Shown piece by piece: positions 3,001 through 62,529 of a DNA stretch of 64,000 nt. Under the pieces are notes generated by a model. It was not told the origin of the DNA, did no database searches, and was given only the letters and a program-made list of their open reading frames with translations. Position numbers and translations under genes: made by a program. Source of the DNA: Candidatus Micrarchaeota archaeon (lineage in GTDB: Archaea > Micrarchaeota > Micrarchaeia > Anstonellales > Bilamarchaeaceae); NCBI GenBank assembly GCA_018812715.1, contig JAHJCT010000017.1:204019-268018 (forward strand), given 5' to 3'. Position 1 is the stretch's first letter, and every line of letters begins with the position of its first letter.

Positions 3001-6000
3001 TCAAGACATCAATTGTTCTTGAATATGCAGATGAATATGCTGCCATAAGTTCTCCTCTTACATCTTCTGGCAGTTCCCTTACTTGATCTAGACCAACTTC
3101 TGATTCCAATAATGGTGCAAGATGTTCTCGTTGTGCTTCAACTGCAACTACGAACTCTTCTCCAAACAATTCAACCATTCTTGCCCTGTTTTCTTCTCCT
3201 TGTGGATTTACTAACGCACGGTGGCATCTGATTAAAATACTTGCAAAAAGAACATTTTCTCCTTGTCTTAAATCTTCTCTGGTTGTACCTGGGCTTTCTA
3301 AGAATTGTAAATGTGGCGCATGTGCTTCAACAAGCAATACGAATTCCTCTCCATAATTTCTGACCAAGTCTCTTCTGTTGCTTTCTTCCAAACCAGCATA
3401 TGTTCTTGTAAGTGCATTAAAGAATCCTCTTTCATTCATGCTTCCAACAAACTCGTATAGTTCAGGATCTGCCCCATGCAAAACACTTGCAACAATCTCT
3501 TCTACGACTGCCTGTTTTTCAGGTGTAAGACTTCCAAACCAATCTAACAATTCTCTTAACTCCTGACTGTCAACATCTACACTTACAGTTCCAATCGCTC
3601 CGGTTACCCTTGTTAAATCCCCACCAGTTTGCGCTACATGTATCAAGGAGTATGCCATTTCAACTGATCTGCGAAGTTCTTGCGGATTTAACATTGAGTC
3701 AGACAATGTTCTTTGCTCTTGCTCCAATCTCTCAAGTGATTCTGCATCGGATGTAAGTCTGGATCTTCTTACTATTTCTCTGTTTTGTATCTCCCACCTT
3801 CTTATACGCTCCAATAAAAGTGCCCTTGCTGGTTCAAGAACAGAATATTGCAATTGTCTTCTAATATCCCCAATGTCATTTGCAATAGTGTGGCTGCGTG
3901 ATTCTATTGCCCTACTCCCCTCGCCTTCGATAACTACTGTAGGTGCAGTTACCACTTCTCTTGATACCACTGGCCTTACAAATAATGTTCCAAGTGCATC
4001 TCTTGCATCGACAAGAGCAACTCCTCCTCTGTTAATCGATTGTCTTGCCCTAGCTAATGCTGCCACCAATTGTACTGGGCCATATGAGTAAATTCTTCCT
4101 GCCCTCAATTCTCTTGTAGTTTCATCAGTCCTTTCTTGCAAAGCTGTTTCTATGCTCTGGACATCCCCAGAGAGCCATTCTAATTCAGCGCGATTTGTTT
4201 CAACAAAACCAACAAGTTCTTCCCCATATCGACTAACAAGCCTGCTTCTGTCTGTGCTATTTTCGTAAATATCATGCAGTGCAATTGCAAATGTCCCATA
4301 GGTATATCCAATGTTTTGCTGTATTTGTGTAACAACAGCGTCTTCACTTCTTGTGCGCATACCTTCTTCTATTTGTTCTATTGGAAGTACTAACCAATGA
4401 AGATTTTCTATATTTGTTTCAACAAAATTAACAAACTCTTCCCCATATCTGCTAACTAGTTCTGCCCTTCTTTCCCTCATTGTTTGTACTTCACTATATG
4501 CTTGCGTGAGGACAGTGCCAGCATTATTACCATATCTGCTTATCAGAGCAGTTGCGAGCGGATCTGCTTCTTCTCCTCTGCGGGTTCTTGTTCTTCTTTC
4601 AAGTTCTCCTTGGGCATCAGCAGGACTCATGTCAGCAACCCATGAAAGCTGATCAAAATTTTCTTCAACTGTTTGCATTTCTTGAACAACGTTATGCCCT
4701 ATTGTTCCTTCTTGCACTAATCTTGCATTTCCTCTTATTCTCTCCTCACGCAAGGCACTATAAACTTCTATTAATGCAGCTCCCCTATTTTCAACATCTA
4801 TTTCCAGAAGTTGAAGTGCTAGTGTATCCTCAAACCCAACTCTTCTACTCAGTTCTCTTTCGGCTTGCGTTCCATCTCTCATTAACCAGTCAATTCTGCT
4901 ATTTTGTATTATTACATTGACAAGCTCAGGTCCATAGTCAGTTCTTAATCTGTCAAGATCTGGAGTTTCTCTTGCCAGTTCAGTATAAATATCTCTTATT
5001 GCAATCGGGAGAATGTTTCTGCCAAATCCTCTTATGATCGCTGCTAATGTTTCATCATTATTTAGTTCAGCCCTATATAATGCTTGGAATTCATTCCAGA
5101 ATGTCTCATTCTCCTCTATTGGTCTACCAAGGAATCTTCCATTGAGTATTCCTCTAAATTCATTGCTTGCCTGCTGACTTCCAGTTGCAATAACCTCATT
5201 CATTAATCTGATTGCATGTCCTGCTTGTCCTCTTGCAACAATGTCAAGTAATGGTCCAATTACCTGCTCGTTCATCTGCGTTATTTCTGTATCGCTAACA
5301 TCTCTCCTTAGTACATCGCGCATAAAGCGTTGAACATGCGCATCTACATCCTGTCTTGTACCAGTTATGGCAAGATTATATACTTCTCGAACTAGTGTTG
5401 CAAATTCGCCGGGCTCTATCCCACTCATAATTCTGTTATAATTCTGTGTTATACTTGCTAAACCAGATGCTGTATCATTGTATATTCTTTCACGAAACTG
5501 TTCTGTAAATGCATCTGTAAATTCATCACTTGTATTTGCATTCCATATTCTTACAAATTCATCTCTACTTGTTTGATCGCCAGTAAGTATGAAATTCCTA
5601 AGATGATCTATTGCTATTCTTGCCTGTTCTGCTGGCATGCTTGTTATAACTAATTGTGTAAGATTCTCTCCATATCGTGCAGAAAGTTCTTCTACTGCCG
5701 CTCTTTGCAATTCTTTTCTTACAGCATTATCAATGGTATATCCTTCTTCCATCAATGCTCTTACTCTTCCGACATCAGTATCTGCCCTTACTGCTGTGCT
5801 GGTTTCTACTCTTTCCCTTAATTCATCTACTGCATCATTATTAGGAATACTTCTTGCCAATCCAGCTCTTATATTATACAACGTATCGATGAAGTCAACC
5901 ATAACAACAGGTTCTAATGGCCTTCTATCCTCTCTATAAGCCTCTAAAAGAGCACTCACTTGCGGATCTTCTCTAACCCGTTCCATTTCTTCAGAAAAGT

Positions 6001-6349
6001 GAGCCATAAAAGTAGCATTTTCATTTAATGGAGCTCCTCTGAAATCTTCATTATATATTCTCCAAAACAAGTCTCGTTGTGATTCGTTTCCAGTGATTAC
6101 ATAATTCCTATAAGCGTCAGCAGCTTCAGTGCCTCTTTGCTGAAGATACGTGACGTCCTCTGCTTCAATACGTCCCTGTTCTGCCATAGCTTCATTACCC
6201 CCGAAGTAGTTTATATTGGTAACGGTACCTACGCCAATGCTTGCAGAGAGAAAATACTTCATCCATCTCGAACGCTTTACCCGATCAAGAATGCCTTCAC
6301 GGCGAATCGTCTCTCGCTGTTCGCTATAACAAAGTTTTGCTCCTGCCAT
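1..6349 (-). CDS. giant protein A, partial (>2116 aa; continues beyond window start), unknown function
   Basis: ATG at 6349 with an in-frame stop just upstream (6353-6355). The track shows no complete minus-strand ORF between 1 and 6421, consistent with one frame running off the edge. I hand-translated both ends: N-term MAGAKLCYSEQRETIRREGILDRVKRSRWMKYFLSASIGVGTVTNINYF, window end ...LYGWNEDQARNAGWLIAANYMYGRLEGWVGENEPEEST. At least 8 in-frame copies of an RYGEEFV-type motif. Confidence 0.8.
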   Translation of the reverse strand, partial: MAGAKLCYSEQRETIRREGILDRVKRSRWMKYFLSASIGVGTVTNINYFGGNEAMAEQGRIEAEDVTYLQQRGTEAADAYRNYVITGNESQRDLFWRIYNEDFRGAPLNENATFMAHFSEEMERVREDPQVSALLEAYREDRRPLEPVVMVDFIDTLYNIRAGLARSIPNNDAVDELRERVETSTAVRADTDVGRVRALMEEGYTIDNAVRKELQRAAVEELSARYGENLTQLVITSMPAEQARIAIDHLRNFILTGDQTSRDEFVRIWNANTSDEFTDAFTEQFRERIYNDTASGLASITQNYNRIMSGIEPGEFATLVREVYNLAITGTRQDVDAHVQRFMRDVLRRDVSDTEITQMNEQVIGPLLDIVARGQAGHAIRLMNEVIATGSQQASNEFRGILNGRFLGRPIEENETFWNEFQALYRAELNNDETLAAIIRGFGRNILPIAIRDIYTELARETPDLDRLRTDYGPELVNVIIQNSRIDWLMRDGTQAERELSRRVGFEDTLALQLLEIDVENRGAALIEVYSALREERIRGNARLVQEGTIGHNVVQEMQTVEENFDQLSWVADMSPADAQGELERRTRTRRGEEADPLATALISRYGNNAGTVLTQAYSEVQTMRERRAELVSRYGEEFVNFVETNIENLHWLVLPIEQIEEGMRTRSEDAVVTQIQQNIGYTYGTFAIALHDIYENSTDRSRLVSRYGEELVGFVETNRAELEWLSGDVQSIETALQERTDETTRELRAGRIYSYGPVQLVAALARARQSINRGGVALVDARDALGTLFVRPVVSREVVTAPTVVIEGEGSRAIESRSHTIANDIGDIRRQLQYSVLEPARALLLERIRRWEIQNREIVRRSRLTSDAESLERLEQEQRTLSDSMLNPQELRRSVEMAYSLIHVAQTGGDLTRVTGAIGTVSVDVDSQELRELLDWFGSLTPEKQAVVEEIVASVLHGADPELYEFVGSMNERGFFNALTRTYAGLEESNRRDLVRNYGEEFVLLVEAHAPHLQFLESPGTTREDLRQGENVLFASILIRCHRALVNPQGEENRARMVELFGEEFVVAVEAQREHLAPLLESEVGLDQVRELPEDVRGELMAAYSSAYSRTIDVLTRTYLNQGEELFYALGAIYAVWLNEPAEGTREYERFQERIQMLNVAYGEDLVTLVHENMNALRFLERPSARVSELENIPEETLERLYSAFEEGPGATRANFMENYDHVARTLPGVYARLRNALLFSNPSDEFGTNFEQAVNIYRQEFGENNYLFNQYFNLELFRENLTRIGQQYHIDIPDYLQDEVTPEELARFFQTDAGRQLIRAGRTFYEGMETEYLLQRNETGFSPETGEFTDENVQQLRNELTILDAVYMGIALEGISGSGSAFQRAAATELMNTLLVISHRDPYLVGPYLLYVLPALLEVAQDERTLIAGMTAFRQMFTQRYAEGQRYLMYSNAINREYFLGVFRRIGEQLPEITSTFDHHRLEDEMRMVPEPMTDEGFISPFLYRQRPGWWQYDEEQLPTLYGQSGQPLSLLPRVTMPNGPMLGLNVLDSGAMGLFSNMYDQVRPPTDRMFRMGVPARYRIGALGSSTIIRRITQLFGAMPVNYQDYWLSGNAEGGMYYSVEGEEGSVTERGAALGEGQLRGITGGERWELQYTGERTEAEESVTGGHRVDYTGEAVGVPSPLTGPVPLPLLQLVPVDTFRRGEGVGIHRAREEFTYESSTGMVEGEEVTTAVRTDGLLESYQRIARESGTDMLFFVAGTYVPELLGPPTWRLTSDDITDMGVENPEDVNYSHINTLLDTSRNGETEEDREAAQEELDALLEGYGITMEDIENQTRDRLQEEQGEIRSRLFFITGEGDVYQLAFGRNTEAELMNYLYGGVNTQNILASLRFVGSEMLTEDSAAAGFDGAAVGFTIPTGDDGDTVSALLFGELVRNLSTMDPVHIEEATGMAVTNLLQSGRQRDVYAAFYRGAQTVELDPENPARVTDTHWAHGSGELMWRRMRVDPLSHSWEARLIGGYPATIGGRWRHEVPTSEHETYGYGVTVAYNEVDLLREYRVVEQEADEMYQNMTTMFVDLYGWNEDQARNAGWLIAANYMYGRLEGWVGENEPEEST

Positions 6350-6421: not shown

Positions 6422-6688
6422 TTATCCTACCCCCAAAAATTTCTCATATTCTTTGTGGTCGCCAATAAAATAAAATTTCCGAGTTTTTATTCTTTCTTCT
6501 GAAACAAAAAGCACACGATATTGCCCGATCTCATCAACAAAGAATTCAAGACCATATTTTTCATGTCTAAAGCCATGCGTAGGGAATATTTTATATTTGT
6601 CTCTACGTTTCATAAATCTCTTTTGGATATCTGGCGGAAGCTTGTCAAAATAATTTTTCCAGGCTTCATCATATTCAAGGATGTACAT
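6422..6688 (-). CDS. RelE/ParE-family type II toxin-like protein
   Basis: 88 aa. The C-terminal pattern GQYRVLFVSEERIKTRKFYFIGDHKEY resembles the RelE/ParE core. It lies 9 nt downstream of a small partner ORF. Confidence 0.55.
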   Translation of the reverse strand: MYILEYDEAWKNYFDKLPPDIQKRFMKRRDKYKIFPTHGFRHEKYGLEFFVDEIGQYRVLFVSEERIKTRKFYFIGDHKEYEKFLGVG

Positions 6689-6697
6689 TTATCTCAT

Positions 6698-6922
6698 CTA
6701 TAAAAGATGTTGATATTTACCTGTAAATTCTTCATCGCCAATTGTTTTCCTTTTTCCTTTTTTTGCTTCTTCATGAAGTTCTTTAAGTACTTTTATTGCC
6801 TTTTTATCTTCAAGTGGCCTTACTCCCAACCTTTCATGAACTTCCTCTTCTAAGTAATTGATAATATCTCTGCATTTAAGTAGTTCTTCATACTCTTGCT
6901 TAGATATTTTGATATACTCCAT
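6698..6922 (-). CDS. putative antitoxin partner (74 aa, charged helical protein)
   Basis: Small ORF immediately upstream of the RelE-like gene on the same strand. No family recognised. Confidence 0.35.
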   Translation of the reverse strand: MEYIKISKQEYEELLKCRDIINYLEEEVHERLGVRPLEDKKAIKVLKELHEEAKKGKRKTIGDEEFTGKYQHLL

Positions 6923-6967: not shown

Positions 6968-8533
6968 TCATTCTATTTGCAATACTCTTCTGCGCCTTGT
7001 CCCTTCATCTTGTGGTTGCGCTTCTGGCACTGTGACGTTTGGTATGCTCCTTGCCCAATCCCCAACAGTGGAAGTATGGTGATTCATTCTCCACGTATAA
7101 ACAGAAATAGCAGAAAGTGTTCTCATATCTATTATTCCATTAACATGAAGATCTGTTCGTGGAGTTCCTAATATGCTGTTATATAATAAGTTAAGATCTC
7201 CATTGAGGCTGTCAAACCATTCTTCATCTGTTCTAGTTGCTGAGAAATTTATGAATGCCTGCACTGCCCTTGCTACTAATCTTCTATCCGTGTCTGATGT
7301 GGTACTTCTTAAGCGTGTCGCTTCTCTTCCAACAGTTGCATATTCATCATGACTTTGTACAAATGCTAAAAACACCTCATCTTCATGCAGGTAGTCATTG
7401 AATATTCTCATAAAAGCATCATATACATCAGTTCTCTCTAATTCAGTTAATGCACTTTCTAAGGAATCGTATCCTTCCGGAAGAGTGCGCATGAGTGTTA
7501 TTATTGCCTCTGGCCTTCCCTGTTGCACTCCTTGATATAATTCAGTACTAAGATTGGCCCAATGGCTTTCAGCAAATTGTTGCAGTGGGGTTTGTCGTAC
7601 TTCGACTGCTAATACTTCTGTAGCTTGCCATACATCAATACTATCCTGGCTTACACCAGTTCCTGTTTCCAAATACCATCTTCTCAAATATAATGCAGCG
7701 GCTGTAAGTGTATCTGCATCCATTGCTACAGTACGGTATGTTCTGAGACTTTGCTCATTTCCAATTCTTGTATGAATCTCTGGTAATTGATCTATCTCTT
7801 GATGATATCTTGCATAATTTTCACGTGCTGCTTCAAATTCAAGAAGATAATACCGGGTAAAAGCAAGTGCTGTGTTTACCAAATTAGCATCTGCATTTAT
7901 CGCAAGTGTTGGGGGTTCTCCTTGTTCTGTCATATATGCCTGAAGCGCAGCATAATTCCCTCCTTCTCTTCCAGCAACAGATGAAAGGAATAATCTGAAT
8001 CTTGGTATTTGATAAAATTCATTGAAAATTGTAACTGCTGCTCCTCTTCTGTTTTCATCTGTAGAAAGAAATTGCTGAATGCGATCTCTGTTAGTGTGCA
8101 AGGTATTTACAGCATTCAATGCATCTGTGCTTCCTCTTGCTCTTAATTGCATTTGAATCCAATCAGTTGAAATTGTTGGTATTGGAGGTTGTTCTTCTAC
8201 TGTTTCTTCTCTTCTTTCTCGTCTGGGCCTTCTCTCACGCCTTGGTGCAGGTTCTTCTACAGCTGGTTCTTCTACTACAGGCTGAGGGTGCAGTTCTCCA
8301 TAAATACGTGTAGCTATTGCCGCTACATTTAATCCATCAATAGCATCAAAATCCTGATCTGCACATCTTCCGCTTGCCCAGTTTTTAGCGCGTCTCAGTT
8401 CTCCTTGCAGATCTTCAACGCTCATTTGATCGTTTACAGTTACTCCTGTGTTATACCTTCTTGCCTCTCCTTCTCCACCTGTACAAACTATTACTATCGT
8501 ATTATTTCGAAGCGTTACTCTGGCATCAACCAT
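6968..8533 (-). CDS. 521-aa Arg/Glu-rich, Lys-depleted protein of unknown function (giant-gene cluster member)
   Basis: ATG at 8533 shares one base with the TAA of the upstream 2854-aa gene (TAATG). PRRERRPRRERRE linker. Only one Lys by my count. The segment EDEVFLAFVQSHDEY resembles the repeat motif of protein A. Confidence 0.8.
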   Translation of the reverse strand: MVDARVTLRNNTIVIVCTGGEGEARRYNTGVTVNDQMSVEDLQGELRRAKNWASGRCADQDFDAIDGLNVAAIATRIYGELHPQPVVEEPAVEEPAPRRERRPRRERREETVEEQPPIPTISTDWIQMQLRARGSTDALNAVNTLHTNRDRIQQFLSTDENRRGAAVTIFNEFYQIPRFRLFLSSVAGREGGNYAALQAYMTEQGEPPTLAINADANLVNTALAFTRYYLLEFEAARENYARYHQEIDQLPEIHTRIGNEQSLRTYRTVAMDADTLTAAALYLRRWYLETGTGVSQDSIDVWQATEVLAVEVRQTPLQQFAESHWANLSTELYQGVQQGRPEAIITLMRTLPEGYDSLESALTELERTDVYDAFMRIFNDYLHEDEVFLAFVQSHDEYATVGREATRLRSTTSDTDRRLVARAVQAFINFSATRTDEEWFDSLNGDLNLLYNSILGTPRTDLHVNGIIDMRTLSAISVYTWRMNHHTSTVGDWARSIPNVTVPEAQPQDEGTRRRRVLQIE

Positions 8534-11500
8534 TAACGTTCCCCTCTTCTGCTAACATACTGCATGATATGATTACGCAGGCCATTTCTTGCAGTCCTTC
8601 TATCAACTTCTACACTTAAACCTTCTCCTTCACCACTTACAGTAAGTCCATATCCTTCACGTAATTGCATGTCTCTATCTATGGTGCTAGTAAGTAATCT
8701 GTACATCTCTGCTTTGATATCTGCTCTTACAACATCTCTTGCTCTTTCTCTTGTTTCAGCATCTTCTGAATTTATTTCAGGACCATATGCATTTACCATT
8801 GCCTGTGCATCCTCTGTTAATGTTCCATCATCGTTTCTAGCTTCAATCATTCTGTCTATTGTTCCATCCAACAATGGTGTTAATGTACTTTCTTCATTTG
8901 CATAAAATCTCTGTGCTTCAGGTGATAAAGTTGCTGGAGGTGCATGAACTTCTTCAACATCAATCTGATCCTCTCTTCTGGGAGTCATTACTTCAAATCC
9001 AGGCCGTCTAACATATTGTGCTTCAAATTCTTCTCCAACCGGCTCCACTGTTTCTTCTCTTGTTACAGTTCCTCTGCTTCTTTCTCTTTCTTCCCTGGCT
9101 TGTTCTTCAGCAGGTGTTGCTCCATCCCACCAGCCGTTTGATCTGTACACTGTAGCCCTGCGGTCTAGATATTCGTATATTTCAGTGTATCTTCCAGGTC
9201 CTGGGACAGTGCTATGTTGCGAAGCATCTTCTATTATTTCTAAAACATGCCCGCGGATATTGTCTCTGTGATCTAGCAGCCATCTCACAAAACCTAATCT
9301 TTCTTCATCTGATCTTTCTGCAATAAATGTAACTAAGTGTGCATTCTCAGGATCAAACAATCTTGGTTCCATATATCCAAGAACTGCTGAACCTACAAAG
9401 CCGCGTTGTCTTGCTGCTTCAACTGCTTCTCCTGGAGTTTCACTTTCTAATATTAATGCTGCAAGCTCTTGCGGATTTCCATAGATTGCGTCTCCTCCAA
9501 TAACTCTATTCTCTTCTCCGTATCTAATATCCTCAATATTAAATGCATTGAATGCAAGCAAGGCTTCATTATTTTCTCTATATTGATTGAGCAGTTGTTC
9601 ATATGTATCTCTGAATCCAGGATCAAGTGATGCCCTGACATCAAGCAATCCAAGGAATGAATTTTGTCTTATTCCTGTAACTGTTCCATCTTCTTCTATT
9701 ACTTCAATGTAAAGATTCTGTGATCTCAAATGTGCTTCAAGTACCTGATAGATATCTCTTTCACTAGTAACCTGTTGCCTTAATTCTGTTATCCTTCCTT
9801 CGCTTGTAAGATCATTCATTATATTATCTAAATATACACTGGGTATGTGTCCTCCTTGTACTGCTTCCCATAAGTAGGCAAATACATCTGTGTTTGAAGT
9901 AAGGAAATCTACTCTTTGTCCGCCTTCTCTTGTATATCTTCCGCTTTCCGCCTCCCCTTCACTGATCAAACCAGTATCTACACAGAATGCATCTGCAACT
10001 GCATCCCTGAAATCTATCACAAGTCCTCTTTCTCTCCATTGTGGTATACGCAGATCAAATAAATCCGTAATATCTACTTCTTCTTTTCTTTCTTGCGAAA
10101 GAATTCCTTGCACATCATCAACAGTCAATCCCCATGGTTCAAGGATTGCTGCAAGCTCTGCCTCTCTTCTATCTTCTGCATCTCCTCTCCTCATATCACT
10201 CAATAGATCATTTATGTCATCTAATCTTCCGCCCATCTCTCTTCCGTCAGCAACTATCTCTCCAAGTCTTCTTGGTTCTATTAGTATGTCTGTTCTTTGA
10301 AGCAATTGATTAAGATCTTCTACATTTCCAGGTCTCCTATCTCTACCTCTTGGAAGAGCATTGGGCATGTGGAAGAAGAATCGCCTCCCTTCTTCAGTTG
10401 CAAGCCATTCCAAATCTTCATCACTGGCTCCGGCACAAAGATTTCCAAAGTCTCTTTCGCATAGCCTTCTTCCTTCTTCAACTGATCCGGCACTATTAAG
10501 TGAATTGTACCATGGCAATAGAACATTATCCCACGCGTAATTTCCAATCACATACCAGGCTATAGCCTGCGGTATTAAGTAAGGAGAATTCCTTAATCCT
10601 GCTCTTATCCTCCCTCCCGGAACTGCATTTCTTATGGAATTAACAAATCTTCTTGCTCCCCAATTAGTGAGTGGTTCCCAATTGTTGAGAAATCTAAGAA
10701 TTCTCCATCCAATATTTATTGCATCGTCCCTTAATGGTCTTGTATCTCTTGCAAATACATCTGCAGCAGTGCTTGCTTGGTCTAAAACTTGATTTATTCT
10801 TGGTCTTAATGCATTTATTGCTGAAAATTCTTGTGCAAATGCCGGGTCTTGACTAATATTTCTTACAAAACCTTCTAACGGAGTTCTCATTTCTCTTGGC
10901 ACAAACTGTGGTTCTGCTCCTTCTACAGCTCTGCCTTGTTCCAATACATTCAATATCTCGTCTACAGTTCTATTATTTTGCACTGCATCTCTGTAAATCT
11001 CTGCAGCTTCCCTTCCATATCTTTCCCTTACTGCTCTTTCAACTTCAGGACTTCTCAGAATCTCAGTTAACACATCATTAACATTTCCACCTTGGGAACT
11101 ACGCTCAAGAAGAGTACGCCTAATTACATTTGTTACTGGTTCATCAGCTATTGGAATTTCTCTTATTCTTCCTTCCACACTGTTTTGAACTCCAGCCAAT
11201 TCGCGAACAAGCATCTGAGGCGGAATTATGTCACTACCTTCTAATCTAGGCAATAATGATGCTCTTTCCAGCGGCGTGTATTCAATTCCAAGCAATTCCT
11301 GTGTTCTTAAAAGCGGTGCCAATTCACCCCGTTGTGCTTCAATTGCCCTTATCATCACTTCTACATCATTTGCAGAAAATCCTTCACGTGCTTGCACTGC
11401 CATATAATCTTCAGGACTTATTCCAGCATTTCTTGCCCCGCTTTCAATTGTTCTTCCTGTTCTATTTAATATATCTCTAAGTACTGGATCTGTTTCAGCT

Positions 11501-14500
11501 AATGTTTCAAGTTGTGCCCTTACATTTGGCCTTGAGTATATGCGTCTTAATAAATTCCAATAGCCACTAGTCTCCCCTCTTGCCGTTTGTGCTGTGTCGT
11601 ATAAAGATTTCATGATATCTGCTATTCTCTGAGGACTAGAATTCAACAGGTTTTCAAGTTCTACTGCCTCTGTTCTTGCTGTTTGTGCTTCTTGCTCTGC
11701 AACCCTTATCTCTTCTGGTCTTGCCCCTCCTTCTCTAAGTTCTTCTACTCTGACTTCAAGTTCAGTAGCTCTTGTGCGTGCCCTACTTATTTCTAATTGT
11801 GCCAATTCAGGATCTAATACCATATCCAAAGTATTTCTAACTCCTTCGCCTGTTGTACTAAGTACTTCTTCAGCTTCAGGAAGTTCGGCCCTTGCATTTC
11901 TCTCTACTCTATCGCTTCTCCAATTTTGCCAGCGCTCTCTTCCAAATCTATACATTCGTTCAAAGCGTCCCCATCTTACTTCTGGTATTGGCCGAACTGG
12001 TCCACCACCTCCACCCTGGCCCCCACCAACGGTTGTATCAACAGGACCTATTCCTCCTTGTTGCACTCCTGGTGGCCTTGCTCCTCCCTCTTCAGCCATT
12101 GCTCTTACTTCAGGCATCTGCCTTATCATCATTGGACCTTCGCCTTCAACAAGATGAGGCCTGCGTGCCATTTCACTTGCAACAACATCTTCTATGTAAT
12201 AGTTGTAATCATTCACTGCCATTGCAACAGCTTCAGGTTCAAACATTGCTTCTATTTGTGATCTTGCATTTTCCAAAGCACGTTGTGAAAATGGAGTTGC
12301 TTCTCCAGTTTCAAAGTAATGCCTTACACTTGGATTCCTGATAAGTCCATCTATTATTTCTGCAACTTCAGGATTTTCTGCCCTTATATTCTCTAATGTT
12401 TGTTGTGCTGCAGCTCTATGAACTACATTTTCTCTTGCTGTTGTTCCTTCAGGTGTTAGCAATCCCTCAAGCAGCCAATCCAATCTTCCTGGCTGCAATG
12501 TTCCTGTGCTTTCAACTTCTGTTACTGGTCTTCCGCCTCTTGGCCCTGGCGTTGGAGGTTCTGGGCCTCTGAATATCATATCAATTACACTTGTCATATT
12601 TCCTCGTGCAAGTGGTGTCATTTCTCCTGTTACTAGGGCCTCTGGAACATGCATAAAGCTTGTATTTCCAATGCTGCCCGTCTCCATAAACTGCATTATT
12701 CTTCCTTGTACTTCCTCAGGCAGTGTTCTCAACCGTGCCTGTGCACCATCCCTTACAGTCGGGTCTTCACTTCTCAACTCTCTCATGAATTCAAACATTT
12801 CTTCTGGGGTTCGAAGTCTTTGTGCTTCTCTAACTGAAGGAATTTCATTAGGTTCTATTTCAATTGGAACCTCTCGCGGTTCCGGTGCCCTTATCTCTTC
12901 AGCTACAAGCTCAGTTTCTGTTCTTGCTTCTGTTGTTCCTCTTACTGGTCTGGCTCTCATAGCTTGCCATCCACGTGACCCTGCCATATGTGCCCATGGG
13001 AAAGCGGCCATTGCAGTTAGGAAAATTCCCTCCCGCATATTCCCTTCTGAAAAGGCATCAACTGCATGATATCCCATATATCCTGAGAAACCAACTCCAA
13101 TTCCAATGTTTGTATAATTAAGGGCTCTTACCACTTGTGTCATTCTAGTAGCATATGCAGTTCCTTGTGCAAACTGTGCTTCTGTACGTAAAACGCCTGC
13201 AAGTCCTCCGATACCCATAGTTGCTATTATCCCACCAAACATCAACCACGATGTCCAACTTGCTTCTCCTTGTACCCGGTATTCTGTAACTATCTGATCA
13301 AATGCCATAGTTGCAAAGAGCGACCCACCAAAAAGTTGTCCTCCAGGTACGAGACACGCTACAACCCCAACAGCAGTTAGTCCAACTGTAGTCCAAAATT
13401 GGTGGTCTGCTACTCGTTCCTGCATTCGATCTATGATTGCATTAGCATCATCAAATCTTCCCATGCCAACAAGGGCATATACATTGCCTTGATCGACAGC
13501 ATACTCTGCAAACATCTGGCTTCCTGAATCTGCAGGAATTGCGAATATTGATGCTTCAACAATTCTTGCACCATTCAAATCCAACTGCATTCTCTCTTGT
13601 GATCCAGACCCTCCTCTACCAAAGAGAATATAATGCATCGAATCTGTTTGCATTTCTCTGTAAGCATCCCAATAAGATCTATCTGGTTCGCTTCTCATAA
13701 ATTCTGCAAAATCTTCTGGGAAAAATATTGCCTCTCCTAATCGTTCTGCACCTTCAAGGAAGTTTTCAATACCTGTAGCAGTTAAATTCATCGCACTTCT
13801 TCCTTCATATGATGCCATAGCAGTTATCCTATGATCTATAGCAGCTTCATATGCTTCTTCAGCTTCCTGGAACCTTCCCTCCAAAATAAGATTTTGAGCT
13901 CTTTGCAAATCAGTATTACAATCTCTTAAATTATCTTCTGCTAAACTAAATCTATCTCCACCCCCAATTCTTATCATTCTTAGATATTCATCGTTTACTT
14001 CTATCTGCTGTCCTATCTGTGAATAAGCCATGGCTGCCCTGCTTTCTCCTTGCACTAATTCGAGCAGATAACTCATCACAGTTCCGCCTCTTAGCCCCTC
14101 TCCATATATTGGCAGATCATCTGTAGTATATTCTATCCCATCCATCTGTGTAAGCAGAGCATCTACTTCGGTAGAAAGATATATCACTTGCCTTAATCTT
14201 CCCATCTCAAGGTCTGATACTGCTCCAAATGTCTCTGGATGCTGTTCAATATAATCTGCCATTAAAGAAAGGCCATTGCTTGTTGTAGTAAATGCGCCTA
14301 CATCATGGCCATAATCCCATGCTGTTTGCCAAGCTCTTTCTCCTGTTGTTCCTCCTCCGCACATGTTTATGACATAAGCTCGGAATGCTTCAGTAAGTGC
14401 ATCATTTCCTTGCCTAAGTATTACTTCAGCATCTACTACTGTACTTCGTCTATGCACTCTTGTAGCAATTAATGACAATCGGTTCCAATATGTTTCACTT

Positions 14501-17097
14501 GCTTGTTCATATTCTCTTAAATTTCCACTAAAAGCCGCTTCTCTAAGTTCTTCAAGATCACTTCTTAAGCTATGCAATGGATAATCTCTGGCTATTGTTA
14601 AATCGCGCTCCCCATGACTTCTTTCATAACCTCTTATCTGTTCAGCAGTAACATATGCTGGAAATGTTCCATCCTCATTTCTTTCACCGAGTGGAATTTG
14701 TCCGGCTTCTACACCTTCTGCTATCGGCTCTCTTCCCCAGTAAATACCTGTTAATCTGTTATAATCAGCAATAAGCATTTCTGTTTGTACGATTCTTCTT
14801 GTTCCTCTATCAAACTGTTGTGCAGCTGCATAATGCTCTTCATCTGTTCCTGCATGCATTTCCATTTCTATTGCTTCAAGCATTATCCTTCTGCCTCTTC
14901 TGTATCCATATGGCACTTCTTCAGTTCCTTCTCGAATCATGCGTTCATGAGTAAATAGTTCATATCTCCAGCCTTCCTCTCTTCCTCCTTCAGCTGCACC
15001 ATAATAATCTCTTATATATTGCAGCAATAGATTTGCTCCCCGATAATCTCCAGCTTCGACTCTTTCTCTTACAATTCCTAATGCTTCATTTATTGTTGTT
15101 CTCCCAACTCCTCTTCTTTGTGCAAATGTCTCCAATCTGTTTGCTTCTGCTTCTATGTAAACTATCTGCGCTAAGTTGAAGCTTTCCATGAAGGCACCAT
15201 CATCACCTGGTTCGCCTTGTGCCATAGCCTGCAATTGTGTCTCCATTCCACTTAGGTGTATTGCATTTTCATCCGTAATTCTGGTGACTCTTCCATTGCT
15301 TACTACTCCAAGCCTTTGCACAGAATCAACATACATTGCAAGAAGTGTAAGTACTCTTGCTGCTTCTTGTGCATTCCCTTGTCTTGCAAGTTCTTCTGCA
15401 CGTTCAAGTGTTTGATTTACTATCCCTATCTGGAAAGTCATTCTTCTTGAACTCCAGTTTTCAATCAGTTCTCTGAATTGATCTGTTTCTCCTCTAACCT
15501 GGTGGTAAATCATTCCTATATTGAACTGCTCACTGGCATCTTCTCCTGCCATTTCACTTTGAAGTGCTTGTTCTATTGTTTCGCGTCCTTCCCAATCCCC
15601 CCAGCGATGCCCTTCATTTCTGTCATAATAAAATGAAATCATGTAAAGTAATCTTCTTGCTCCTTCGAAATCACCAAGCTTGAATCTTTCATCTGCAATG
15701 GCTGCTGCATTTCTGATAAGTTCTCTTCTCTCTTGCCCTCTTCTTCCTGTAATTGCTTGGAACCCTTCAATATCTACAAGCATGTGTGCCATGTCCATTT
15801 CAGTTGAATACTGTGCAAGCATTGATGAAGTAGGGCTTCTTCCTTCAATTATTATATTATATATTGTCTGATAACTCGGCAGATAATCTACTGCATGCCT
15901 ATCTAATTGTCTTGCAGACCGTTCAAGCAATCCTAAAGAAATGGCAAGTGCTGCAAGATTTCTATCTCCTCTTTGCAGTGCATCAAGTGCCTGTTGACCA
16001 TACCATTCCGGACTTTCTTCTGTTACTCTTCCTGTTCCACGTAAACTAGTAGCAATCATAGTCAGGTTTGCATCTCTTTCTTCTTCGCTTAATGGCATCT
16101 CTCTTCCAATTGTCATGAAATAGCTGGTTGTAATTCTTTCAAATTCCAACTGACCAATTATTTGTCCTTGTTCAAGTCTTCTGATTATTTCATCTAGTTC
16201 ATGCCTGAGATTTTCCATTTGCTGTCTCATCTGTTCATTTGTCTGTTGTTCTATTGCAAGTGCTATCTCATCTCTCCATTGGCTGAAGACTGTTGTGTTT
16301 ATCTCAGTCCATTGGTCCTTTATTGTTCCTATATTAGCTTCAAAAGACCAAAGCGATTGTCTATCTTCATGTTCCTGTTCACTAGTATACCCAATCCTTT
16401 GCCTCCCCTGGTTTCCTCTCTCCACTATAAAACCAAAGAGTGCATTTCTTTCCATTTCTACAGCTGAATTGTCGATATTGTAAATAGGAATATTCTCAAC
16501 GTACAATCTCCCTGCTTTTAGTACTGCCTCTGCTCTGCCGTGATTTGTTGTTGCAATATCTAATACAGAAGCTTCCAGGCTATCAAAAATAGTTTCAAGT
16601 GCATCTTCTGATTCCACGCCAGGAATCTGAATATTTTCAGGCATGCCCCCCGTTAGCATATGTAATTCTATATCAAATACATCTCCGACTGTTCTGAGCA
16701 TTGCCCTTGATCTTGTTATCATGTGGAATGATGCAGCAATGTTTCCTTCTCCACCAGTTGTTCTTGCATCATTTAATATCTGCTGAACTAAATCGAGTTC
16801 ATCCGTATACCTTTCTCCAAGTATTGGCAGTGCAGTTACTCTTAATCTCACTTGTTCCAATGTTTCTTCTGTTCTTTCTACTTCTGAATTAATGTATTCA
16901 ATAGTTGCATCATCAGGCCTGACAGTTAAGGTTCGCGCATGATCCTGGAGTGCACTAATCTCTCCAAGCACTTCATCCAATCCCTGTTCTAATTCTCTTC
17001 TTTGTTCATCCATTGCTTCTATTCTTGTTGGAATGATTGCAATTGGTAATCGTGTAATCTCCTCCTCTTCAGGTCTTTCTATTGTTGTTCCTCCCAT
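8533..17097 (-). CDS. giant protein B (2854 aa), unknown function, with a central multi-pass hydrophobic block and a conserved C-terminal domain
   Basis: Uninterrupted 8.5-kb ORF with ATG at 17097 and a strong SD. Helical TPR-like repeats (GDYRGANLLLQYIRDYY, GDFEGARRLLYMISFYY, GRFQEAEEAYEAAIDH). About 5 hydrophobic helices around aa 1235-1400. Trp-rich segment AIAWYVIGNYAWDNVLLPWY. C-terminal YRLLTS...YGLTVSGEGE domain shared with the 1463-aa protein. Confidence 0.9.
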   Translation of the reverse strand: MGGTTIERPEEEEITRLPIAIIPTRIEAMDEQRRELEQGLDEVLGEISALQDHARTLTVRPDDATIEYINSEVERTEETLEQVRLRVTALPILGERYTDELDLVQQILNDARTTGGEGNIAASFHMITRSRAMLRTVGDVFDIELHMLTGGMPENIQIPGVESEDALETIFDSLEASVLDIATTNHGRAEAVLKAGRLYVENIPIYNIDNSAVEMERNALFGFIVERGNQGRQRIGYTSEQEHEDRQSLWSFEANIGTIKDQWTEINTTVFSQWRDEIALAIEQQTNEQMRQQMENLRHELDEIIRRLEQGQIIGQLEFERITTSYFMTIGREMPLSEEERDANLTMIATSLRGTGRVTEESPEWYGQQALDALQRGDRNLAALAISLGLLERSARQLDRHAVDYLPSYQTIYNIIIEGRSPTSSMLAQYSTEMDMAHMLVDIEGFQAITGRRGQERRELIRNAAAIADERFKLGDFEGARRLLYMISFYYDRNEGHRWGDWEGRETIEQALQSEMAGEDASEQFNIGMIYHQVRGETDQFRELIENWSSRRMTFQIGIVNQTLERAEELARQGNAQEAARVLTLLAMYVDSVQRLGVVSNGRVTRITDENAIHLSGMETQLQAMAQGEPGDDGAFMESFNLAQIVYIEAEANRLETFAQRRGVGRTTINEALGIVRERVEAGDYRGANLLLQYIRDYYGAAEGGREEGWRYELFTHERMIREGTEEVPYGYRRGRRIMLEAIEMEMHAGTDEEHYAAAQQFDRGTRRIVQTEMLIADYNRLTGIYWGREPIAEGVEAGQIPLGERNEDGTFPAYVTAEQIRGYERSHGERDLTIARDYPLHSLRSDLEELREAAFSGNLREYEQASETYWNRLSLIATRVHRRSTVVDAEVILRQGNDALTEAFRAYVINMCGGGTTGERAWQTAWDYGHDVGAFTTTSNGLSLMADYIEQHPETFGAVSDLEMGRLRQVIYLSTEVDALLTQMDGIEYTTDDLPIYGEGLRGGTVMSYLLELVQGESRAAMAYSQIGQQIEVNDEYLRMIRIGGGDRFSLAEDNLRDCNTDLQRAQNLILEGRFQEAEEAYEAAIDHRITAMASYEGRSAMNLTATGIENFLEGAERLGEAIFFPEDFAEFMRSEPDRSYWDAYREMQTDSMHYILFGRGGSGSQERMQLDLNGARIVEASIFAIPADSGSQMFAEYAVDQGNVYALVGMGRFDDANAIIDRMQERVADHQFWTTVGLTAVGVVACLVPGGQLFGGSLFATMAFDQIVTEYRVQGEASWTSWLMFGGIIATMGIGGLAGVLRTEAQFAQGTAYATRMTQVVRALNYTNIGIGVGFSGYMGYHAVDAFSEGNMREGIFLTAMAAFPWAHMAGSRGWQAMRARPVRGTTEARTETELVAEEIRAPEPREVPIEIEPNEIPSVREAQRLRTPEEMFEFMRELRSEDPTVRDGAQARLRTLPEEVQGRIMQFMETGSIGNTSFMHVPEALVTGEMTPLARGNMTSVIDMIFRGPEPPTPGPRGGRPVTEVESTGTLQPGRLDWLLEGLLTPEGTTARENVVHRAAAQQTLENIRAENPEVAEIIDGLIRNPSVRHYFETGEATPFSQRALENARSQIEAMFEPEAVAMAVNDYNYYIEDVVASEMARRPHLVEGEGPMMIRQMPEVRAMAEEGGARPPGVQQGGIGPVDTTVGGGQGGGGGPVRPIPEVRWGRFERMYRFGRERWQNWRSDRVERNARAELPEAEEVLSTTGEGVRNTLDMVLDPELAQLEISRARTRATELEVRVEELREGGARPEEIRVAEQEAQTARTEAVELENLLNSSPQRIADIMKSLYDTAQTARGETSGYWNLLRRIYSRPNVRAQLETLAETDPVLRDILNRTGRTIESGARNAGISPEDYMAVQAREGFSANDVEVMIRAIEAQRGELAPLLRTQELLGIEYTPLERASLLPRLEGSDIIPPQMLVRELAGVQNSVEGRIREIPIADEPVTNVIRRTLLERSSQGGNVNDVLTEILRSPEVERAVRERYGREAAEIYRDAVQNNRTVDEILNVLEQGRAVEGAEPQFVPREMRTPLEGFVRNISQDPAFAQEFSAINALRPRINQVLDQASTAADVFARDTRPLRDDAINIGWRILRFLNNWEPLTNWGARRFVNSIRNAVPGGRIRAGLRNSPYLIPQAIAWYVIGNYAWDNVLLPWYNSLNSAGSVEEGRRLCERDFGNLCAGASDEDLEWLATEEGRRFFFHMPNALPRGRDRRPGNVEDLNQLLQRTDILIEPRRLGEIVADGREMGGRLDDINDLLSDMRRGDAEDRREAELAAILEPWGLTVDDVQGILSQERKEEVDITDLFDLRIPQWRERGLVIDFRDAVADAFCVDTGLISEGEAESGRYTREGGQRVDFLTSNTDVFAYLWEAVQGGHIPSVYLDNIMNDLTSEGRITELRQQVTSERDIYQVLEAHLRSQNLYIEVIEEDGTVTGIRQNSFLGLLDVRASLDPGFRDTYEQLLNQYRENNEALLAFNAFNIEDIRYGEENRVIGGDAIYGNPQELAALILESETPGEAVEAARQRGFVGSAVLGYMEPRLFDPENAHLVTFIAERSDEERLGFVRWLLDHRDNIRGHVLEIIEDASQHSTVPGPGRYTEIYEYLDRRATVYRSNGWWDGATPAEEQAREERERSRGTVTREETVEPVGEEFEAQYVRRPGFEVMTPRREDQIDVEEVHAPPATLSPEAQRFYANEESTLTPLLDGTIDRMIEARNDDGTLTEDAQAMVNAYGPEINSEDAETRERARDVVRADIKAEMYRLLTSTIDRDMQLREGYGLTVSGEGEGLSVEVDRRTARNGLRNHIMQYVSRRGER

Positions 17098-17101
17098 TTT
17101 T

Positions 17102-17108
17102 TCACCTC
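17102..17108 (-). promoter_or_regulatory. Shine-Dalgarno-like GAGGTGA upstream of the giant protein B start
   Basis: The minus strand reads GAGGTGAAAAAATG. The element overlaps the TGA of the preceding small ORF. Confidence 0.5.
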
Positions 17109-17421
17109 AAGTATATTCCTTACACATAAGTACAAAATCCTGCAGCCTCTCAAGTCTCGCCTTTTCATTATCTTTTCCTTTCACTGCTTTTTTCTGCCAT
17201 TCAACCAGCTCATCATGGAATTTTCTTATTTTTTCTATCTGTGGCTCCATACTCCTGCTTTTTACCTTTGAAGCCTCCCATTTTGCAAGGAATTTTTCTA
17301 TTACAGTAATAGTATGATTTACCCTGTTTATTGTATTTTTTTCAACAGAAGCAGCATCAGTCTTAACAGGTATTTTCTTCTTGGAGATTTTTTTCTTTTT
17401 TGAAGATTTTTTCTTAGCCAT
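17107..17421 (-). CDS. small Lys-rich protein (104 aa from the ATG), unknown function
   Basis: ATG at 17421 is preceded by AGGTG (the track start at 17430 is GTG). MAKKKSSKKKKISKKKIPVK N-terminus. Composition is typical of the host genome, unlike its giant neighbours. Confidence 0.5.
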   Translation of the reverse strand: MAKKKSSKKKKISKKKIPVKTDAASVEKNTINRVNHTITVIEKFLAKWEASKVKSRSMEPQIEKIRKFHDELVEWQKKAVKGKDNEKARLERLQDFVLMCKEYT

Positions 17422-17511
17422 CAGAAGCACCTAAAAATTTATGGCGCTCCAACTTTATAAATTTGTACTATTTCACATAGAATTAGAAAAATATTATAAA
17501 AAATAAAAGAA

Positions 17512-20500
17512 TTATTCATTTTCTCTGCCTACAAAGCTCAGAGTGTGTCTCTCTATGCCTCTTCTGGCTCTTCCCATATCTGTTATTTGAACAGCGAACT
17601 CTTCGCCTTCACCACTTACAGTGAGTCCATAGTCAGTACGGTGCTGTACGTCCCTTCGTATATCACTTGTAAGAAGTCTATACCACTCTGCTCTTATTGC
17701 CATTTCAGTTTGTTCTCTGTTCCCTTCAAATGCACTTCTTAGCAATTGACCGTCTTCTCCTTCATCAGTGAAGAGCCTTTCCAGGGTTCCGTCCAACATG
17801 CTGTTAAAGTCATTTTCAATAGTATAGAACTGTTGAGCCTCAGCGTTCAATTCTGTACCACTTCTCTCAGTTCCAGTTCCTCTAAATCTTTCTACTTCAT
17901 TGATGTATCCTGTATCAACAGCCCACTGTACACGAACACCTTGTGGATCTGAGAATGGATTATAGTCAGATACATTTCCACCATCTGCTTTGTGCCTTTG
18001 CAGTTCTTCAACAAATTCTTCAAGACGGTATCTGTTGAGTCTGTATCGTGCACCTCTGGTATCGACAAAGCTTGTCAGGAGCTCTCTTATATCCTGGTTT
18101 GTTGGCGCAAGAAGAGTGTATGCCATGCTATCTGAAATATCAAATTCAGAAAGTTCTCTTCTTAACTCCCTTCTTGCATATTGTTCAGAGGTATCTTCAA
18201 CCCATCCATTTGTTCTTGCAGTTGCCATTGCTTCATTGAATGTTTCTTCTAACATTACATCAGTTACAGGAACACGTCTTGTTTGCAATGTTTGTCCTTC
18301 CCCAGCTCTTGCTTGTGTTTTTTCTTCCCAAAGAGTAACAAATGCTTCTCTATTTTCTGGTTTGAGGTACTCGGTATGCTCTCCCCTTTCAGCCACTAAT
18401 GGAAGCATAAGTCTTCCTACTCTATCTCTTCCTTGTGCAAAGACAAAATCCACTAATCCAAGATCTGCTATATTATAATTATCCATTACTCTTTCTTGTT
18501 GCTCAGATACGAGGAATCCTCTTTCTACCCATTGCCTTGTATGTTCATTCATATAGTCATAGTCAACTGTTGCCCTCGTTCCCTCTTGTGCCATTAAATA
18601 ATCAACAAATTCATTTGTCATATTCCTGTTGAGTTTAAGGCCATCGGTTATCACAGTATATTCTACATCGATTATACAACAGAACTGATTTCCTGATTCC
18701 CATTCATCTTCAATTGCTAGTGGTTCCCAGTTTTCTACATCATCCATACTTTCAATACCAAGTTCTCTGCATGAATTAGGTATTACTAATCCCGGTGTTG
18801 CTGGAGGCCTTTCAACTGCTTCTCCTGTTCCCTCGGCTACTTCATTAGTTCCTTCAGCTACCTCGCCAGTTCCTTCTGCATTTTCTTCTCTAGGCGGAGG
18901 TTGTGCTCTAGAGGTAGAACCTGCACTTGTTTCCTGAGAACAATTAGCTATGTCATCATCATCCAGTTCGTTTACATCTCTAACATGTTTCAATGTTCTT
19001 CTCTCTTGGAAGAATGTAAGAACACCTTCATTATCATGTTCAACTTGATTATCCCTTAGCCAGTCTAATCTTTCCTCACCTGTAACTCCATATGCAGTTG
19101 TGTAATAACTATCCTCTCTTTCTGCAAGTCGTTCTGGAATGTCGTAACTATCATTTATCATTCTCTTATTTGAGAGCTCACCTTGCATCGGAGACCACCA
19201 TTCCCAAGGTGCTCGGTCGAAGTGGTTTCCAAAATGATTAAAGCTCCAACGCCATGGCATCGCATTCCATGAGAATGGATTGTACCAATGACCTGTAGTT
19301 GATGTACCAATGCGATAGGTCCAAGGTTTGTACCATGCTCCGTTTGGTGTTGTTGTCATCCATTCATTTGGTGATGTGAACCATGCAACACCAAAAGATC
19401 CTATCAAGTATGCTTTGAGTGCTCCTTTCCAAAGTCCCCTCAACCATCTCGGGTAATGTTGGTATGTGTGAGCCTTTCCTGTAATTGGATTTCTACCAAC
19501 AACTTGCTTATTCCAATTTCGTTTCTTAAGATCATCAACTGTTTCTCCAAAGCCCCAACTTGAAAGTCTTCTAAGACGCCCACCTCTAAAATTACCTTGT
19601 GACTTTCCTATCCATGCTTCGCTTGTAAATAATCTCCAGAACCATTTATCTTTGAACTTTTGCCATTTTCCTACAGTTACTTTTGGAGACGGATCCCAGC
19701 TTTCTTTTGTAGCTTCCCAGATCGTTCTTGCTATAACAAATTGACCTTGAGGTATTTCACCTAAGTTTTCAGCAGTTCTTTTATGAAGCATTTCAACTGA
19801 TTTTTCAGCTGCTTTTCCTAATGGCTTGGAATACTTATTTTCTATTTTTACCAGCATCTCTTCTAATGAAGCACGAGGATACTTTCTAGTTTCTATTGCC
19901 TTTACAACTGTCAGCATTCTTTTTCTTACTTCATCAGGCAATTCTGCTCCTTCTACTTTTGTTCTTAATGCAGTTGCTTTTGTATCAAATGCTTCAAGCT
20001 TATATCTGAAAAGTTCTTCGCTTTCACCTTTACCTTTTCGTTCTTGTATCACTGCATCATATTCTGCTTTAGTAATACTTCTTGCTCTAAGCAGTTCATC
20101 CAATTGTTCTGCAGTTTTTGTTCTCAATCCTTGTTCTGTTGAAGGAATACCAAACAATTGCTGGCAGTCGTCCATACGATCAAGAACTTTCTTTGTATCT
20201 TTCATCAATTCACTGATAACTGGATTGCCTAGCCACTCTCCTGCTCTATTTGGAAGTTCATGAATTAATTCTGTACTCACTTCTCTGCAGTCAAGCATAT
20301 GCTTTTTGAAGTTTTCAGAGTATGTCCGTACTACATTTTCAAATCTGCCATTTTCAGTTCCTTGTATTCCACCTAATTCTGCTGAAAGTGTATCAAATAT
20401 TTCTTTTGCTTGAGTATACTCGTCCTCTATTCTCGCCCCCCTAGCAGACAAACTCAGTCCACGGGTATTAAATTCACTAATTCGCTGTCTTGCAATTACT

Positions 20501-30723: not shown

Positions 30724-30796
30724 ATAAGCACCATAGACTATTGAGAATATAGTTTTATATACCGCTACCAACCCATAATTCATATAAATCTAACGT

Positions 30797-36251: not shown

Positions 36252-36296
36252 CTTGAAAATAAATTTTCAAGATCAGCCAACTTTGCATAAGCAAAG
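36252..36296. terminator. two AT-rich perfect hairpins between convergent transcription units
   Basis: cttgaaaat-aa-attttcaag (36252-36271) and ctttgc-ataa-gcaaag (36281-36296), bracketed by the direct repeat agtgggctttc (36239-36249 and 36295-36305). Confidence 0.35.
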
Positions 36297-36548: not shown

Positions 36549-36569
36549 ATTATTATAACGAAATTCTCC

Positions 36570-60028: not shown

Positions 60029-60061
60029 GCCTTAGTAACTAACTTAAGTTTTTTAAATCTC

Positions 60062-62477: not shown

Positions 62478-62529
62478 GAATTTTTCACTCGTGTTATATT
62501 AATAAACATGTTCATTAACAATAATTCTA

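Follow-up and report, generated by a model that had tools for sequence, protein, structure and literature searches.

Lysine-Poor and Giant Proteins in Described Systems

Long protein stretches devoid of lysine (Lys), known as lysine deserts, have been described in components of the ubiquitin-proteasome system and in pupylating Actinobacteria (Szulc et al. 2023, PMC10665810; Kampmeyer et al. 2023, PMC10169902), where they are read as an avoidance of Lys-directed tagging; the text of PMC10665810 does not contain the word "archaea". Here, we analyzed a 64-kb stretch of DNA (contig JAHJCT010000017.1, positions 204,019–268,018; hereafter the window) from a Candidatus Micrarchaeota archaeon, whose left third carries, on the minus strand, a cluster of genes in the order C–small–B–mid–A. 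Three of the encoded proteins, the giants A, mid, and B, are almost devoid of Lys. As in the known deserts, the Lys-free stretches are long and conserved and arginine (Arg) is retained. However, the known deserts usually span 150 to a few hundred residues of cytoplasmic or nuclear proteins in organisms with a known tagging system, whereas the depletion described here extends over 6,199 residues of three proteins, is switched on or off among close relatives, and occurs in a DPANN archaeon whose 64-kb window yielded no tagging system.

Some other protein groups share part of this pattern. Ricin A, cholera toxin A1, and pertussis toxin S1, which enter another cell, are Lys-poor with normal Arg content, and their partner chains are Lys-normal. 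Lys-poor catalytic chains of AB toxins are also cited in PMC10665810. Extreme Lys depletion with Arg retained beside Lys-normal partners (here C and the small protein) is common to both cases, but no toxin or enzyme domain was found in the window proteins, which are 10–100 times larger and whose putative target would be an archaeal host rather than a eukaryote. In high-alkaline proteases and cellulases, Lys is replaced by Arg, histidine (His), and glutamine (Gln), the shifts being modest and tied to alkaline habitats. The direction of change looks similar in the present cluster (Lys down and Arg, His, and Gln up), although alkaline adaptation would also lower acidic residues, which are little changed in Lys-free mid proteins, and here the shift takes the form of a near-total, bimodal purge with no obvious link to habitat.

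Little is known of the ways in which DPANN archaea attach to their hosts and exploit them, and most of their giant proteins lack annotation. SPEARE proteins of Nanohaloarchaeota are giants with serine protease, adhesion, and restriction-endonuclease domains, and giant genes have been described in Omnitrophota (bioRxiv 10.1101/2023.11.21.568195). The present cluster has in common with such giants of DPANN and candidate phyla radiation (CPR) organisms that it encodes multi-thousand-residue proteins of ultra-small symbionts, often with membrane segments and a proposed role in host contact. On the other hand, SPEARE and Omnitrophota giants carry recognizable protease, adhesion, nuclease, or glycan-degrading domains, whereas A, B, and C have no known domain, and none of the SPEARE-type Pfam domains (serine protease, adhesion, restriction endonuclease) was detected in them. 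Our literature search retrieved no report of lysine avoidance in giants of the SPEARE or Omnitrophota type, nor any paper that describes the present cluster or an avoidance of Lys by DPANN archaea.

Near-Total Depletion of Lysine in A, Mid, and B

Proteins A, mid, and B contain 12 Lys in 6,199 residues (5, 1, and 6, respectively), compared with 10.5% Lys and 5.0% Arg in the 28 other genes of the window. The binomial probability of such a count is about 1e-273 at the background frequency and 5e-17 even against the 1.1% Lys of secreted beta-helix proteins. Within the window, the ratio of Lys to Arg in the three proteins is 12/547. In B, the six Lys are residues 194, 260, 473, 1830, 2338, and 2795, the longest gap being 1,356 residues (K473 to K1830); the sole Lys of mid lies in the context RRAKNW, with 53 Arg in the same protein. 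All five Lys of the full-length A (P0108, 2,824 residues) fall in its in-window part, which has 199 Arg, and only two of them lie in the about 2,770 residues after the leader. When a lysine desert is defined as a Lys-free stretch of at least 150 residues or at least 50% of the sequence, A and B are deserts by length, and the desert is kept in the orthologues of eight loci.

These values agree with the preliminary description, in which six Lys in B (in identical contexts), one in mid, and a similar paucity in the verified stretches of A had been reported next to Lys-rich neighbors, and they show a depletion that is even stronger than described there. By our count, the neighbors contain 15.9% (FtsY), 24.4% (L31e), and 22.4% Lys (the 107-residue small protein). 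One correction concerns protein C, which is not Lys-free (4.9%). The N-terminal ~860 residues of C are Lys-normal; its C-terminal ~600 residues hold seven Lys in this lineage only and are Lys-normal in three other loci (L005, L008, and L012).

Relative to background, the giants gain Arg (+5.0 percentage points), Gln (+2.4, that is, 4.7 vs. 2.3%), threonine (Thr, +2.2), alanine (Ala, +1.9), and glycine (+1.7), whereas cysteine (Cys) falls to 0.2% from 0.9%. The sum of Lys and Arg remains fairly high (12.8 vs. 16.3%), and aspartate (Asp) is not raised (5.4 vs. 5.0%). AAA and AAG together make up 12 of the 5,492 codons in frame 1 but occur several hundred times in frames 2 and 3. Thus, the avoidance targets the amino acid.

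Two States of the Cluster and Repeated Switching

Besides the window copy, three homologues of B were found among 5.8 billion proteins, all with the same gene order, and all homologue sources that bear a name are Micrarchaeota. Comparison of homologous loci (table 1) revealed that A, mid, and B share one state: they are Lys-free together in eight loci and Lys-normal together in four, including L004, where homology of the open reading frames (ORFs) was confirmed. The genes flanking Lys-free loci have 4–16% Lys. Twelve of the 13 A homologues found are Lys-free.

A profile search with mid against 1.84 billion representative sequences gave 98 clusters. Among the 89 clusters of at least 300 residues, 18 have <0.5% Lys, only 3 have 0.5–4%, and 68 have at least 4% (up to 21%), so that the Lys content of this family is bimodal. 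In a neighbor-joining tree of mid, in which Lys was recoded as Arg, at least five clades show the Lys-free state, and some Lys-normal members branch from inside Lys-free clades. Parsimony on this tree requires 10 state changes (6–11 over 30 bootstraps), compared with 14 for random labels. L002 and L009, the closest relatives of the window cluster, have 5–10% Lys along the whole proteins. Both states are also present among Danish (MFD) genomes.

Lys-free and Lys-normal mid proteins differ solely in their composition: Lys −9.3, Arg +5.9, Gln +1.6, Ala +1.6, Thr +1.3, and His +0.6, with glutamate (Glu) −0.9 (P = 0.1) and Asp unchanged. No residue conserved solely in one of the two states was found in the alignments of mid or B; in the Lys-free state, such a residue might have indicated a catalytic site.

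Considering its all-or-nothing, switching character, the Lys purge provides a marker, readable from sequence only, that singles out a conserved three-protein module under strong and specific selection. It extends the idea of lysine deserts to archaea at an about ten-fold larger scale, and it makes natural pairs of Lys-free and Lys-normal orthologues available for experiments.

Sites Where Lysine Is Retained

The N-terminus of A resembles a signal peptide, and its basic n-region, hydrophobic stretch, and NINxx motif are conserved in all orthologues. In Lys-free orthologues, this n-region carries about half of the Lys of the protein, with three of five in the window organism and six of eight in L011. 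In five Lys-free A orthologues, the n-regions hold 14 Lys in 142 residues, compared with 18 in 13,895 residues elsewhere (Fisher's test, P = 2e-20), which corresponds to about 10–12% Lys in the n-region and 0.13% in the rest of A; the first 32 codons of A in Lys-free lineages include three to six Lys codons. Lys is tolerated on this leader, which is cytoplasmic and probably cleaved. The contrast between a Lys-rich leader and the purged remainder of A favors a hazard encountered once the protein has been exported over a cause that lies in the cytoplasm or in translation.

Outside the leader, K945 of A is the only Lys that is invariant across 11 aligned A homologues, and K2338 of B is largely conserved; the remaining residual Lys are common to subclades only. 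Lys is thus retained at sites where it presumably cannot be spared and has been lost from the others. The small protein, which is conserved with 49–66% identity, is Lys-rich (9–22%) in every locus examined: 11–22% in four aligned sequences and 9–13% in two more.

Possible Causes of Lysine Depletion

The depletion is a property of the protein, and selection would act on the finished product, neither on DNA nor on translation. At the scale of the window, amino-acid composition, G + C content (GC), GC at third codon positions (GC3), and codon usage confirm the depletion and place the synonymous usage of the giant genes close to background: GC3 is 0.24–0.25 versus 0.28, all two-fold codon families lie within 0.08, and AGA and AGG, as expected from the preliminary description, make up much of the Arg codons (0.74–0.84 vs. 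0.74). A recent foreign origin, from a Lys-poor (halophile or high-GC) donor, or an artefact of base composition could be suspected because the giant genes are slightly GC-richer (0.41 vs. 0.37), but this excess follows from their amino-acid content. Since synonymous usage and GC3 are like background, the giant genes are native. The synteny with FtsY, ribosomal-protein genes, and Trm56 is kept in distant Micrarchaeota, and Lys-free loci span a wider range of GC (38–67%) than Lys-normal ones (51–60%). Recent transfer or a GC effect is thus refuted by codon usage together with synteny, and this whole class of explanations is extremely improbable. The earlier suggestion of an acquisition from a Lys-poor, halophile-like lineage is not supported, also considering that Asp is not raised; the accompanying view that the depletion is not simply a GC effect is borne out by the abundant out-of-frame Lys words and the GC range of the Lys-free loci. 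JGI metagenome 3300017971, the source of one Lys-normal relative, presumably comes from hypersaline lake sediment. An avoidance of Lys codons that would ease translation of the giant genes when tRNA-Lys is scarce or cleaved is also very unlikely. Giant ORFs should be the most sensitive to stalling, and pairs resembling toxin-antitoxin genes lie in and beside the cluster; however, such insertions are specific to this window, the first codons of A keep their Lys in Lys-free lineages, and Lys makes up 22% of the small ORF that ends 9 nt before B. Sparing of Lys during starvation would be expected to deplete the message throughout, leaders included, which is at odds with both the A n-region and the small ORF.

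The explanation that we tentatively prefer, with a probability somewhat short of even, is that proteins which are exported or exposed to a host are under strong selection against Lys at each site and would thereby escape a Lys-directed hazard, such as proteolysis or covalent tagging, for which a single hit is enough. According to this model, A, mid, and B would be co-transcribed and translationally coupled giants of a Micrarchaeota-specific, vertically inherited cluster. Strong purifying selection would remove every dispensable Lys, here and in many relatives, here with Arg as the main substitute, besides Gln, Thr, and Ala. The three proteins would most likely work outside their own cytoplasm (at the surface, at the interface with a host, or within the host cell), where one hit, for example a cut by a Lys-specific protease or the covalent tagging or cross-linking of Lys side chains, could disable the protein. 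Where the threat is absent, the constraint would vanish and mutation would quickly restore 5–10% Lys. The parts that remain inside the cell would be C, which is Lys-normal, and the Lys-rich small protein.

Two features of the data are consistent with this model. About 360 AGA codons (363) are kept from mutating to AAA in an AT-rich genome, which implies appreciable selection at each site, and the near-total purge, together with the return of Lys when the constraint lapsed (L002 and L009), fits a hazard where one Lys suffices. We infer a Lys-directed hazard of this type. The preliminary description had named evasion of Lys-directed modification or proteolysis among its possibilities, and this is the best fit to the all-or-nothing switching, although no such agent was found in the 64 kb. 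Its other proposal, extracellular exposure, is supported in part, by the signal-peptide-like N-terminus of A, where Lys is kept in the n-region, and by the low Cys content, but mid and B have no signal peptide.

Several observations weigh against the model of selection on exported proteins. Neither B nor mid has a signal peptide, and the number of helices in the hydrophobic cluster of B is either four or five, so that it is the leader of A that points to a location outside the cytoplasm. The proteins are rich in Glu and Arg and helical, with a cytoplasmic-looking composition unlike that of typical archaeal surface proteins, and A, mid, and B show no excess of N-glycosylation sequons (z about 0.3–0.5). 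C and B share a homologous C-terminal domain, and yet that of C is Lys-normal in L005, L008, and L012, suggesting that location alone may not decide the state. A secreted Lon-like protein of the window keeps 5.4% Lys; thus, not every exported protein is purged. Finally, no Lys-specific protease, ubiquitin-like system, or cross-linking enzyme was found within the 64-kb window, which holds CDC48, a GNAT, and the Lon-like protein and in which no ubiquitin-like, E1, or JAMM genes were found; the 42 kb of the window beyond the cluster likewise yielded no Lys-directed system.

A more specific and rather doubtful version of this model is that A, mid, and B make up an apparatus by which Micrarchaeota contact or penetrate their hosts and which faces a Lys-directed host defense, such as proteasomal removal after ubiquitin-like tagging or a surface protease specific for Lys. 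The switches of state would then record host switches in an arms race between archaea. If so, the strategy of lysine-less toxins would have its first counterpart among prokaryotes acting against other prokaryotes. The invariant Lys of A and the largely conserved one of B may then represent the one functionally required site (catalytic, cross-linking, or processing). The Lys-directed agent that A, mid, and B might encounter becomes testable by comparing Lys-free and Lys-normal lineages together with the genomes of their hosts.

Other explanations at the protein level were also considered. The complex might use a Lys chemistry of its own (isopeptide or transglutaminase-like cross-linking, or Lys-specific processing), with all other Lys removed for self-protection so that only the intended site reacts. 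The invariant K945 of A, the largely conserved K2338 of B, the doubling of Gln, and the Lys-rich small partner and Lys-normal C encoded alongside are what such a system might show. We nevertheless regard it as unlikely, given that Lys-normal orthologues with the same invariant Lys tolerate 150–200 others, that the Lys-free state has no conserved catalytic-type residue of its own, and that no protease, transglutaminase, or sortase-like domain was detected in the cluster proteins. Another possibility is a physico-chemical adaptation of exported proteins, for example to high pH, at which Arg stays charged and Lys does not, or, more generally, because Arg is favored for stability or for binding of membranes or phosphate groups. 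The shift from Lys toward Arg, Gln, and His resembles that of alkaline-adapted secreted enzymes, and the sum of Lys and Arg stays fairly high. On the other hand, Lys of ~0.2% and strict bimodality far exceed the modest shifts of alkaline enzymes; Arg, Gln, and Thr are single-step codon neighbors of Lys; the two states coexist among Danish genomes; and the secreted Lon-like protein has not lost its Lys. L005 belongs to a series of metagenome-assembled genomes from Oskarshamn groundwater, which we take to be near neutral in pH. We thus consider this adaptation quite improbable.

Economy of Lys, in which lineages unable to make this amino acid would spare it in very large proteins lost from the cell, also seems a poor candidate, with a low probability. 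Lys biosynthesis does vary among Micrarchaeota orders (PMC12892359), and the recyclable leader peptide and the cytoplasmic partners keep Lys. However, saving one residue in ~6,000 would give a negligible advantage per site, especially in small symbiont populations, and could probably not protect 363 AGA codons from G-to-A mutation when the genome is AT-rich. Furthermore, economy predicts graded shifts rather than a bimodal 0.2% versus 5–20%.

Organization of the Gene Cluster

The genes and other features of the cluster are listed in table 1. The start of B lies 9 nt downstream of the stop of the small gene and is preceded by a GGTGA motif, and the stop codon of B overlaps the start codon of mid (TAATG), which suggests translational coupling between B and mid and a common operon for B and the small gene. 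Upstream, beyond C, a HEPN/nucleotidyltransferase pair is followed by the genes for FtsY, prefoldin, eIF6, L31e, a dsDNA-binding protein, and S19e. The position between FtsY and Trm56 is conserved in Candidatus Micrarchaeota chromosomes: distant members keep the order FtsY–C–small–B–mid–A–(about 140 residues)–Trm56, and in L001 (GC 66%) the order is S19e … FtsY, C, small, B, mid, A.

Some departures from this arrangement were observed. The HEPN and nucleotidyltransferase (MNT-type) genes between C and FtsY are absent at the syntenic L001. The 618-bp gap between mid and A holds two small Lys-rich ORFs of 88 and 74 residues, with no such insertion in other loci. Neither has a Pfam match, and the 88-residue ORF is RelE/ParE-toxin-like by eye only; the two look like a toxin-antitoxin pair inserted into the operon of the giant genes. 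In L005, which belongs to a Lys-free lineage, three Lys-normal genes on the opposite strand lie between mid and A, indicating that the operon can be interrupted. In the closely related genome of L008, the B gene is divided into three overlapping ORFs (175, 420, and 2,370 residues), reflecting either frameshifts from assembly errors or a decaying gene.

Table 1. Positions of the Cluster Genes, Their Conserved Features, and Other Elements (window coordinates unless a locus is named).
Feature	Position	Strand	Details
Protein A (KKB44_03040)	2..6349	−	start codon at 6349; N-terminal 2116 of 2824 aa, rest beyond left window end
A signal-peptide-like N-terminus	6179..6349	−	basic n-region MAGAKLCYSEQRETIRREGILDRVKRSRWMK; hydrophobic segment YFLSASIGVGTV; motif NINxxGxNxAMAE/QP
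A Lys945 codon (AAA)	3515..3517	−	context …SLTPEKQAVVEE…; invariant in 11/11 aligned A homologues, both states
Mid	6968..8533	−	521 aa; 1 Lys (K50)
Protein B (P0001, KKB44_03060)	8533..17097	−	2854 aa; 6 Lys, 295 Arg
B Lys2338 codon (AAA)	10084..10086	−	context …QERKEEVDITD…; conserved in 3/4 aligned B homologues
B hydrophobic cluster	12973..13404	−	aa ~1232–1375; 4–5 conserved transmembrane-like helices
Small basic protein	17107..17430	−	107 aa; MAKKKSSKKKK…; 22.4% Lys
Protein C	17512..21903	−	1463 aa; 4.9% Lys
C Trp/aromatic-rich, low-charge segment	19300..19500	−	…WYKPWTYRIGTSTTGHWYNPFSWNAMPWRWSFNHF…; aa ~740–910, just past only hydrophobic helix; hydrophobic and Trp-rich around aa 826–850
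Mid–A gap ORFs	6422..6688; 6698..6922	−	88 and 74 aa
HEPN and nucleotidyltransferase genes	21991..22428; 22358..22966	−	between C and FtsY
Mid orthologues with GDSL/SGNH domain	L001 18722..21220; L005 9986..12397		also P0010–P0013
Insertion between mid and A in L005	L005 12439..14510		3 genes
Divided B gene in L008	L008 856..9608		3 overlapping ORFs
Lys-free loci			window, L001/L007, L003, L005, L006, L008, L011, L012; GC 38–67%; A, mid, B 0.0–0.9% Lys
Lys-normal loci			L002, L004, L009, L010; GC 51–60%; A, mid, B 3.9–11.3% Lys
Second beta-helix protein	30794..33859	+	1022 aa
SRP RNA gene	36296..36550	−
NosD/beta-helix protein	56462..60031	−	1190 aa
Lon_C (S16) protein	60792..62498	−	569 aa

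Features of the Cluster Proteins

Searches of Pfam, NCBIfam, PHROGs, and PADLOC gave no match for A, mid, B, C, or the small protein, and profile searches of PDB with the B and A alignments returned only noise (E ≥ 0.058). Protein A contains at least five repeats of ~100 residues with the motif R..LV..YGEEFV..VE.N...L.FL, located in the middle of the protein (residues ~600–1200) and near its C-terminus (~2290–2450) according to internal tblastn cross-matches. For its beta-rich C-terminal part (residues 1480–2116), the AlphaFold2 (AF2) model had a predicted local distance difference test (pLDDT) score of 38.9 and no usable fold.

The AF2 model of mid consists of a beta/alpha domain (residues 1–81), a disordered linker rich in Arg, proline, and Glu (85–116), and an all-alpha domain (120–500). 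Several of the mid orthologues tested carry a GDSL/SGNH esterase domain of ~250 residues inserted in their middle part (Pfam PF13472, E = 1e-17), which is absent from the window mid and whose presence is independent of the Lys state. Enzymes with GDSL/SGNH domains typically have envelopes or lipids as their targets, which is in line with the model of exported or host-exposed proteins. An N-terminal Cys of mid (IVCTGG) was considered as a catalytic residue and rejected, as this Cys is not conserved.

In the N-terminal half of B, recurring helical motifs of the TPR-like form G-D/N-x-x-x-A-x-x-L-L were read by eye, and the C-terminal 130 residues of B are homologous to the C-terminus of C. The use of the Lys pattern of C as a marker of membrane topology was also rejected, because its C-terminus is Lys-normal in other Lys-free lineages.

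Other Features of the Window

Two beta-helix proteins were found in the window. The secreted NosD/beta-helix protein has no Lys between residues 4 and 920, with a cluster of Lys near its C-terminal end. The second beta-helix protein has 13 Lys and 34 N-glycosylation sequons where 14 are expected; sequon enrichment reaches z = 5.7 in one beta-helix protein, unlike A, mid, and B. The Lon_C (S16) protein, with a signal-peptide-like N-terminus and 5.4% Lys, is apparently an exported Lon-like protease. In addition, the best Rfam match of the signal recognition particle (SRP) RNA gene is the bacterial large SRP model (65 bits), despite the archaeal nature of the organism.

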